Below, piece by piece: positions 20,688-22,758 of a stretch of 64,000 bases of DNA; the first letter of the stretch is position 1; each line of letters starts with the position of its first letter. The notes under the pieces are model-generated. The model searched no databases and was not told the DNA's origin. It was given only the letters and a program-made list of their open reading frames with translations. A program made the translations under genes and the position numbers. The stretch spans positions 16,678,001 to 16,742,000 of the forward strand of contig OZ281494.1 of NCBI GenBank assembly GCA_965637545.1. Direction: 5' to 3'. Source of the DNA: Phallusia mammillata. Its lineage: Eukaryota.

Positions 20688-22758
20688 TTAGATTTCGGAA
20701 TTTTCCGACCCCATTGGTTTACATTCTTCATAAGCTGCAATTGTTTGCCGTCTCTCTTCCATTCGGCGTGCTTGGTTATTATCTGAAGGTAAATCCAAAG
20801 GTGGGACTTGTGCCTCTTCTAACTGCTGGTCACCTTTGTATGCCATTGCCTCGTACAGGACGTTAGGTGTCATCGGCAGATGTGGAAACGATTGTACGCT
20901 ATCATAGAGAATGTTTGGTGTCATGGGAGGTGCAAATGCAGCTGTGGTGTCATACAATATATTCGGGTTCATGGACCCATCGTTTATGTCTTCACTATCA
21001 TGCAGATTGTTTGGTGTCGTTGGCAGGTCAGTTTTGCGCTTCGGTGGAGTTAGTGTTTCTGGATTAGGTATCTTCAAATGAGGCAAAGCTTTCTTACTAC
21101 CTCCTTTGTTTGCTTTGGGCTGTAAAATGTTGTTCTCAGCTTTGTATGCTGGTATTGTTTTTAACACATCTATTGATTTTGTTGAGTCGTACAGATTTAG
21201 TACTTCAGTTTTATCTGTTGGATCTGTTTGTTTTCCGTCATTAGACGTTTGGAGCTGCAGCACATCATAAGGTGATTCCTGATGGACATCAAATCCCTTA
21301 TGAGCTGGTTTACGTAGCGAATCGTATGTCCCGTTGTCTGAGAATCTGACCTTGGGCTTTTGATTTGGTATGGTGTCATACAGGCTGGTTTCTTCTATTT
21401 TTACATTCAGCAAAAGATTTGAAGGTTTAGCTTCGTAGTTATTGTCTCTTTTAGTTGACCCACTTAACTTTTTCTTCACCAGACTTTTCTTCTTTGGCAC
21501 AGGACTTGGTTTCATAGCAACATACCCGGTTTTGTCATCAGACGTAGCAATGTTCGATTTGGCAAGTTTCTTTTTGGGAACTGATGGTGTAGAAGACGTG
21601 TTGCCTTCATTCACGATTTCACTTGCATTGGCATTGTTGCCACCATCCATTGTCAAGTCTACGGACTCGTTCATTGCGTTTGCCCTTCCAAGGTCGCTAA
21701 GTCGAACCGCGGCCACGGGGTCATCGGAAGTAAATTTGCATTTTCTGCACAAAAACAAAACGCTGAACAATTACAATGCACAAATGTCCTGTTTTAAATG
21801 GGATATGTTTCTAACCCTTGGCGCTTAGTTGCGATGACTAATCCTGCTACGCTAACCAGTGACAGGGCAACAGCAATGGCTCCAATCAGAATCGTGATCA
21901 AGATTTTGCTTTCATCTTCAATTGCTGTACACGTGTCGCTACATTCTGTAAGAATAGCGTTGTGTTTGATTTTCCCGAGAAGTTAATCCCATATGTTACG
22001 TGATAAAAATTTAAGGGCAACTACTGCATATTAACGATTGTAACAACCGCTAAGTAGTTTTAAGAGACCGCAAGTGTTTCATTTAAATACCAAAAAATAG
22101 CCATATTTGCTTTTTCCCAAATTTTGGGAAACCGCTGGAGAAATTTGCGGTCCCCCAAAACACCTTAAAAAAGCACTGACTCTAAGCACATTTATTTGAT
22201 AAATTTTAAAACATGTAAGACAATTTATTTACCTATTTAATTTCCACAAACTGTATTATATGGTGCACACTTAGTTTTAAATATAGTTGATACATTTGAT
22301 TAAATTTGCATTGATCTCGCATTACTGCAGTCGTCAAGCCTTGGCCTACCAACATCGTTGATGCTTATGTATCCGCTTCCTTTTATCCCATACGTTTTTA
22401 CCAGCAGTGCCGCAGCTACTGGTTTGAGAGTTACGTTTGCCAAAGCACAATTTCCGTTGGAGCAATTCTCCAAAGGGTCGTCGTTACAGTGGATTGCATT
22501 TTCGGACGCAGTCGATACCTCAGGCCAACATACAGTTTGCCCTTCTTGCCAAATCGCTGTACAAAAGATTACCGTATTAAACCAAAGATTTCTAGTAAGG
22601 TTTGCAAATGGTTCATGACCTTAAGGGACGTCGTGTGCAATGTGCTACGCTTGATCATACGTTTTAAATAAAGTGAAACTAAATTTAAACAGCAATTAAT
22701 AAAACGCGATGAACTGGTGGTACTTACCGCCAATGTAGATGAACAGTACAATAAACAT
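20688..22758 (-). CDS. TMA1: type I membrane protein with a small Cys-rich ectodomain and a ~350-aa Tyr-rich tail (transmembrane adaptor-like)
   Basis: Exons 22728-22758 (MFIVLFIYIG), 22350-22556 (VCWPEV...HCNDDPLENCSNGNC), 21816-21945 (ECSDTC + TM ILITILIGAIAVALSLVSVAGLVIA), 20688-21744 (single-exon tail with 12 Tyr). Confidence 0.82.

Follow-up and report, generated by a model that had tools for sequence, protein, structure and literature searches.

Within the 64,000-nucleotide (nt) window analyzed here (the whole stretch from position 16,678,001 to 16,742,000 of contig OZ281494.1 of Phallusia mammillata), where the base composition is about 37% G+C and introns are short, a gene on the minus strand at 20688-22758 lies between an array of CUB-type membrane receptor genes and an array of FN2-mucin genes. 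We refer to it as the orphan gene, and it is very likely a real gene. Its joined coding frame has 482 codons with no internal stops, and all three introns are of the GT-AG type, with phases 1, 1 and 2. Coding exon 1 (22728-22758; 10 codons plus one base) encodes the methionine and a hydrophobic, signal-like run. Exon 2 (22326-22556), for which no family match was found, carries the bulk of the ectodomain, with cysteines C20, C34, C42, C47 and C87 and the sequons at 41 and 51; exon 3 (21816-21945) contributes C89, C93, a short stalk, the transmembrane helix and basic stop-transfer residues; and exon 4 (20688-21744, all on the minus strand, with the stop codon at 20690-20688) encodes nearly the entire cytoplasmic tail with its 12 tyrosines. 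The open frame of exon 4 reaches 360 codons; when the window was shuffled 20 times, the longest frames had 112-182. This exon structure is established directly, and DNA contigs of sequencing run X2 span all four exons with zero mismatches; as X2 may be the source sample of the window, this match confirms the letters of the sequence but not how widespread it is.

Two other donors for exon 2 were rejected, 22401 because it is out of frame and 22232 because it lies behind a stop, and no further in-frame exon was found inside intron 2. In addition, the ATG is preceded at a distance of 7 nt by an AG acceptor ending at 22766. A non-coding leader or an upstream exon is therefore likely, and a longer N-terminus is possible; the neighbouring gene FNB shows a non-coding leader in RNA contigs, which is a parallel for this arrangement. 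Among 14 sequencing runs, none was listed as RNA data containing the gene. In the contigs of three presumed RNA runs over positions 10500-30000, no exon of the orphan gene or of the CUB-type receptor genes R4-R6 was covered, and within the orphan gene only a repeat in intron 2 was hit. These contigs show presence only, and for this reason the missing ones were not counted as evidence. The intron-2 repeat (22046-22185, no strand assigned) is a high-copy interspersed element, recognized in each of four runs by a spike in depth and by loose ends; other short repeats of this kind, with the same signs in 4/4 runs, are located at 11515-11549, 27082-27185 and 28078-28182.

As predicted from the sequence, the product of the orphan gene is a type I single-pass membrane protein with no enzyme domain, and its topology pattern is a direct observation. 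The predicted ectodomain comprises about 80-90 amino acids (aa), with seven cysteines (20, 34, 42, 47, 87, 89 and 93) and two N-glycosylation sequons (41 and 51). The first-pass annotation of this DNA had described about 70 aa with six cysteines; the ectodomain is longer than that, and the count drops to six only if signal cleavage takes off C20. With C20 retained, the odd number of cysteines would predict a covalent dimer. The predicted helix (residues 102-126; 21830-21904, minus strand) has zero charged residues, and the sole juxtamembrane cysteine, C133 (21738-21740, minus strand), is a possible S-acylation site outside any CxxC pair. The tail is 355 aa long and contains no Pfam domain. Its length and its 12 tyrosines agree with the earlier description, whereas the low complexity that had been attributed to it does not: the entropy is 4.02 bits, with 74% disorder-promoting residues, and the windows below 2.2 bits (eight overlapping windows of 12 residues) all fall within a single lysine-rich patch. 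This patch (21468-21587, minus strand) includes two VPKK motifs and Y205 (YVAM). Two VPKK motifs in the tail correspond to P=0.0001 in 50,000 shuffles, for a pattern that was picked post hoc, and the patch could serve in acidic-lipid binding, in SH3 binding or as a nuclear signal after cleavage. The C-terminus (20691-20702, minus strand) fits the class I PDZ ligand pattern S-x-I, with a chance level of 0.025.

The evidence that carries our interpretation is found around the tyrosines of the tail. Chance levels of motifs were obtained from 20,000 shuffles of the tail, repeated after cutting out copies 2-3 of the triple repeat described below (34 residues, three tyrosines). Asp or Glu occupies position +1 at nine of the 12 tyrosines, against a shuffle mean of 1.6, a count that was reached in 0/20,000 and 0/50,000 shuffles. 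Without repeat copies 2-3 the bias is still 7/9, again with 0/20,000 shuffles. The combined pattern Y-[DE]-x-[ILVM] occurs five times in the tail (shuffle mean 0.30; 0/50,000), and Leu is found at -1 of five of the 12 tyrosines (P=0.034). The tail has two tyrosine clusters. The first one (21189-21439, minus strand) contains Y234, Y253, Y271, Y290 and Y316, each followed by Asp or Glu and separated by 18-26 aa. The second is the triple repeat (residues 388-437; 20826-20975, minus strand), whose units M[NT]PN[IV]LY[DE] carry Y395, Y411 and Y428 and whose copies 2 and 3 open with PMTP; a fourth, degenerate copy, in which His replaces Tyr, opens with PTTP (residues 372-380; 20997-21023, minus strand). 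Among the three copies, identical codon positions 1, 2 and 3 amount to 21/27, 25/27 and 8/27, respectively, and the proportions of synonymous (pS) and non-synonymous (pN) differences are 0.83-1.18 and 0.10-0.21. Silent sites are thus saturated while the peptide has been kept, which means protein-level selection on the repeat motif, irrespective of whether duplication or convergence produced the copies. Both the motif bias and the constraint on the repeat are direct observations.

The motifs listed in the first-pass annotation were all found: SLYDTI, SPYDVL, ILYDSV, YVAM, YEAM, the triple repeat, five PxxP segments and KVRF. The partners that it had named (p85, PTB proteins, Nck, PP1 and ITIM phosphatases, where ITIM stands for immunoreceptor tyrosine-based inhibitory motif) have a weak basis, the matches being near chance, repeat-dependent or atypical. 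YxxM occurs twice (P=0.033; P=0.16 without repeat copies 2-3), NxxY four times (P=0.012; P=0.17) and YDxV once (P=0.044; absent once these copies are removed), and the five PxxP matches give P=0.13, or P=0.70 without the copies, with no enrichment of PxxPxK (P=0.25). The single loose RVxF match, KVRF (residues 262-265; 21342-21353, minus strand), has P=0.05-0.09, or P=0.04-0.08 without the copies, and fails two stricter RVxF patterns at the residue preceding Lys. The assignments to PTB, p85, Nck, SH3 and PP1 were dropped for these near-chance counts. The tail scan also returned zero matches to NPxY, YxN (1.0 expected), YxxP and ITAM (the corresponding activation motif). Three of the five PxxP matches have the form PxTP, the site pattern of mitogen-activated protein (MAP) kinases; they stand at the starts of repeat copies (mean 0.20, P=0.001, tied to the repeat). 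The idea of a phosphotyrosine scaffold, which the first-pass annotation had put forward, is supported by the acidic +1 bias and by the codon pattern of the repeat, and this support is stronger than the evidence it first cited.

Tyrosines with an acidic +1 and a hydrophobic +3 residue are bound by Src-family, Nck and SLP-76-type SH2 domains. As reported in a study of human tyrosine kinases (PMC11136658), these enzymes generally prefer an aliphatic residue both at -1 and at +3; Glu at +1 is preferred by most non-receptor kinases and disfavoured by most receptor kinases. Taken together with these preferences, the acidic bias leads us to regard the tail as a substrate that non-receptor kinases would modify at many sites. 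We give a probability of roughly 60% to the reading in which the tail would be phosphorylated at multiple sites by non-receptor (Src-type) kinases and would become a multivalent SH2 dock, probably triggered via the protein's own cysteine-rich ectodomain. This ectodomain is big enough to fold, and the exon plan (signal, ectodomain, membrane, tail; phases 1, 1, 2) is like that of the neighbouring receptors. Once the small ectodomain binds a ligand or clusters, a Src-type kinase would be brought to the tail, the two clusters at 234-316 and 395-428 would be phosphorylated, and SH2 proteins of the Src-family or Nck/SLP-76 type would then dock multivalently; MAP-kinase feedback might act on the three PxTP sites with which repeat copies begin. 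Expression of the gene, phosphorylation of the tail, the class of kinase and the partners are what we infer from the sequence.

Several points weigh against this interpretation. The kinase and SH2 preferences are human and are applied here to an invertebrate; the acidic +1 residue is Asp at six of nine sites, whereas the preference cited above is for Glu; and an aliphatic residue at -1 is present in just 5/12 tyrosines. It should be noted that the acidic +1 pattern was picked after viewing the sequence; its probability under a binomial model, close to 2 in a million, survives a several-hundred-fold correction. The repeat units were selected by protein similarity, and the codon test therefore shows selection on the motif and not its purpose. 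As for the extracellular side, the predicted signal peptide is short and has no basic N-region, and an AlphaFold2 model of exon 2 alone, from a single sequence, reached a predicted local confidence (pLDDT) of 38.5, which is uninformative for the fold. Lastly, no orthologue was found in database or metagenome searches.

In those searches the queries to outside databases were single exons, never the spliced protein. The homology search with the tail gave 1,198 candidates with none at E<=1, and exon 2 against longer proteins gave 48 candidates with none at E<=10. The exon-A alignment of the CUB neighbours, submitted to the same word-based search, returned 7,987 candidates and likewise none at E<=1; as the search also misses these receptors, its blank for the orphan gene is weak. 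HMMER was run with exon 2 against 1.84 billion proteins, and its four matches were rejected: they are long repetitive proteins whose scores came from 4-7 stretches and from differing parts of the query, and the cysteine pattern was not kept. Pfam, PDB sequences and the ESM Atlas offered nothing usable for the orphan-gene exons, blanks that prove neither absence nor novelty, and metagenome scans gave 206 and 187 pattern matches with none confirmed. In the literature no description of the orphan gene or of the cluster was found, within a coverage that left most subscription papers and supplements outside.

The neighbouring genes are also on the minus strand. The first one upstream, FNB (23767-25778), encodes an FN2 domain, a second cysteine-rich exon, a mucin-like stalk, a membrane helix and a 79-aa tail with one tyrosine; its six coding introns are all joined in RNA contigs (runs X3 and X6 cover spliced FNB). 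The second, FNA (27811-29899), is known as a model only and has the same layout, with a 67-aa tail and one tyrosine. The nearly tail-less FN2-mucin proteins that had been placed next to the orphan gene are therefore not its immediate neighbours. Short tails are found in the distal FN2-mucin copies (31832-56671), recent duplicates in which three membrane exons, at 32, 49 and 54 kb and so at least 9 kb from the orphan gene, lead to tyrosine-free tails of 16-18 aa; a fourth membrane exon, at about 38.7 kb, was disrupted by a deletion. The tandem duplication extends over 31800-57900, with copies 70-94% identical in DNA, multiplied stalk exons and extra signal exons that are apparently orphaned. 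Pfam recognizes fn2 in FNA, FNB and three distal exons. At the end of the window, 58600-63630 on the plus strand holds exons of a long coiled-coil gene, presumably nesprin-like, with one weak spectrin-repeat match (E=5e-4, below the Pfam cut-off, in one of ten frames); this gene is a useful synteny anchor.

Downstream of the orphan gene, the CUB-type membrane receptor genes R1-R6 (1456-19209) have tails of 42-170 aa with 20 tyrosines in total. R1 and R2 are the only members in which Pfam detects CUB, structures of cubilin and neuropilin are matched by R1, and R3-R6 are joined to the array by the common exon B, which has a cysteine-rich insert and an invariant WPP. The six genes diverge stepwise, exon A of R3-R6 being 11-13% identical to that of R1. 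Their tails are enriched in YxN (5, P=0.014) and YxxP (7, P=0.002), both absent from the orphan tail, and those of R1 and R2 (1456-1711 and 5560-5797) share the order of tyrosine motifs YDY[IV], YE[KN]P and YV[ED][LI]; YDYV is the Src-SH2 site of p130Cas. GC donors are needed in two modelled introns, at 9684 (R3 intron 1) and at 28498 (FNA intron 4), with no RNA confirmation. The modelled last exon of R5 (14662-14920) has no tyrosine motif; judging from a strong donor at 14727, another exon may follow, but none was found. This receptor family may be a more interesting object than the orphan gene itself.

Among known systems, the LAT, PAG, LAX and NTAL adaptors share with the orphan protein a single membrane helix, a long non-enzymatic tail rich in tyrosines and a juxtamembrane cysteine. 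According to PMC3342071, PAG and LAX have 10 tyrosines each, against 12 in the orphan tail, and YxxM is common to LAX and the orphan protein. The same source gives ectodomains of 4 aa for LAT and 16 aa for PAG, compared with about 80-90 aa, 6-7 cysteines and a signal-like start here, and a CxxC in LAT, NTAL and PAG (absent in LAX), in place of which the orphan protein has the single C133. The Grb2-type YxN of LAT, NTAL and LAX is missing from the tail, and no sequence similarity to the adaptors was found; as given in 10.64898/2026.08.18.744962, the Grb2 rule is Asn at +2 and the Crk rule is Pro or Leu at +3. The earlier label of a LAT/PAG-like protein consequently holds for the functional resemblance and not for the family, the ectodomain being too large for it. 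The missing YxN would also make the protein a poor substitute for LAT, and a dock for Src kinases or adaptors is more likely.

By analogy, DCBLD1 and DCBLD2 are the best working model for how the orphan protein may act. They combine a receptor-like ectodomain with one repeated tyrosine motif in the tail, where many sites are reported (PMC6029619) to be phosphorylated by Src-family kinases or Abl. The DCBLDs have YxxP motifs, and their ectodomain is built of CUB, LCCL and discoidin modules; for the orphan protein neither a domain match nor YxxP was found. Seven YxxP bring the neighbouring CUB receptors closer to the DCBLDs. FcoR of Botryllus (PMC11507803 and PMC12065747) is also of type I and of similar size (520-610 aa), carries ITIM-like and core tyrosine motifs, and is encoded in a receptor cluster of an invertebrate that is expanding and in which the adjacent proteins have no signalling motifs. 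FF (fester) and FcoR are head-to-head pairs of related proteins (PMC11507803), in contrast to the orphan gene, which is single and head-to-tail, with an ectodomain that has no recognized relation to those of its neighbours. We regard the orphan protein as a probable scaffold-type receptor outside the LAT/PAG, DCBLD and FcoR families, and also outside that of the precursors of epidermal growth factor (EGF) receptor (EGFR) ligands, which are considered below.

Other explanations of the tail and of its genomic setting have to be weighed against the multi-site kinase substrate. The tail could belong to an inhibitory receptor that recruits SHP-type phosphatases via three ITIMs, since [SILV]xYxx[ILV] is matched three times (P=0.010) and tyrosines 16-37 aa apart could be suitably placed for SH2 domains in tandem. 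Without repeat copies 2-3, two matches are left and P rises to as much as 0.047; moreover, the residue at +1 is Asp in all three, in place of the medium-sized non-polar one used for SHP1 docking. In PD-1, polar or charged +1 residues, including Asp, gave no SHP1 recruitment, a result that was obtained in SHP2-knockout cells and applies to SHP1 only, not to SHP2 or SHIP (PMC8631942). As every ITIM match carries Asp at +1, the inhibitory reading becomes less likely, and we consider it decidedly doubtful. That the open frame has no function, or none in signalling, and owes its tyrosine motifs to chance would agree with the absence of homologues from all searches run and with most named motifs being individually near chance. 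The four-exon open frame, its length, the acidic bias after tyrosine and the codon-position pattern of the repeat argue against it, and it is the least probable of the explanations weighed here. It is unlikely, too, that the FN2-mucin (or CUB) proteins of the cluster signal through the orphan protein as their partner, in the manner of FcoR, with the orphan gene possibly co-transcribed with FNB in an operon. The gene does lie between both arrays on the shared strand, three distal FN2-mucin copies have tails of 16-18 aa without tyrosine, and the FF/FcoR pairs of Botryllus constitute a precedent (PMC11507803). In addition, the gap between FNB and the orphan gene (22759-23766) is the only one of nine without AATAAA or ATTAAA and has the acceptor 7 nt before the ATG, and most Ciona operons are described as devoid of a poly(A) signal of this type (PMC1488885). 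However, the missing hexamer is not significant (shuffle P=0.24), the two adjacent FN2 proteins have tails of their own (79 and 67 aa), and the CUB receptors possess their own enriched tyrosine motifs. No charged residue is present in any of the nine modelled membrane helices or the three distal FN2-mucin helices; a single copy of the orphan gene stands in the window against about a dozen neighbours, head-to-tail, with all nine modelled genes on one strand; and its exon 2 shows no recognizable relation to exons of the neighbours. Signalling for the tail-less FN2-mucins, with the genomic neighbourhood as its only basis, looks unlikely. A wider version, in which a lineage-specific scaffold grown by local duplication of one tyrosine motif would provide LAT/PAG-type docking for the entire cluster of CUB and FN2-mucin proteins and be co-transcribed with one of its members, appears to us as improbable as the inhibitory receptor.

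Regarding the origin of the ectodomain, the orphan gene might be a degenerate member of the CUB array that kept the first CUB half and expanded its tail, a history compatible with the scaffold mechanism and, in our judgment, quite unlikely. The array shares with it the strand, the exon layout and the intron phases (1, 1, 2), although this layout is common and hence weak evidence; exon 1 of the orphan gene matches that of R4, both being of 31 nt and of identical phase. The C20-C47 spacing is like that of the first CUB disulfide, and by eye exon 2 looks similar to the N-terminal half of CUB. The scores are weak: P=0.041 for the pair with R2 exon A, and 2.9 bits for an R1+R2 profile, which 13 of 459 scored shuffles exceeded and which also missed R3-R6. 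On the other hand, six-member profiles gave shuffle-like values on exon 2 (-1.1 bits for exon A and -0.6 bits for exon B; leave-one-out controls pass in 5/6 cases for exon A, where R5 fails, and in 6/6 for exon B), hhalign assigned a probability of 0.1-0.2% against the CUB-array exons, and P exceeded 0.1 in 14 of 15 pairwise local tests. Comparison of the tails gave nothing significant (best P=0.056), and exon B, with its WPP and four invariant Cys/Phe positions, is absent, none being hidden in intron 2. Alternatively, the gene could encode a much-altered precursor of the EGFR-ligand kind, with the layout of neuregulins and an ectodomain that is shed or signals bidirectionally. The stretch C34-x7-C42-x-N-G-x-C47, found in one of the nine modelled proteins, resembles the start of EGF-family growth factors, and a phase-1 intron falls within C87-x-C89, directly ahead of the membrane exon. 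Both the intron within C-x-C and the three-cysteine spacing are likenesses to TGF-alpha and the neuregulins, and an intron between EGF cysteines 4 and 5 beside the membrane exon is reported as a mark of ErbB ligands (PMC1618406 and PMC11686035). C87 and C89 would then be putative counterparts of these cysteines. The remaining spacings do not fit: in the series 7, 4, 39, 1 and 3, the third-fourth distance of 39 and the fifth-sixth of 3 stand against about 10-13 and 8 in EGF, and the Gly-x-Arg ahead of the last cysteine is missing. No EGF match to exon 2 or its fragments was obtained in Pfam or PDB at E up to 10, and this origin is very improbable.

Single-pass proteins with tails of tyrosine motifs are well known, and receptor clusters of invertebrates contain them too, which gives the orphan gene a modest interest. 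The triple repeat, in turn, represents selection assembling a multivalent docking motif inside one gene. In ascidian genomes, proteins of the ITAM/ITIM pathways have been reported, and homologues of LAT and SLP-76 have been reported absent (PMC12065747 and PMC11507803). An orphan scaffold unrelated to LAT is a testable candidate for this step, and if it were shared by the whole cluster of CUB and FN2-mucin receptors, the orphan protein would fill the LAT/SLP-76 gap of ascidians.

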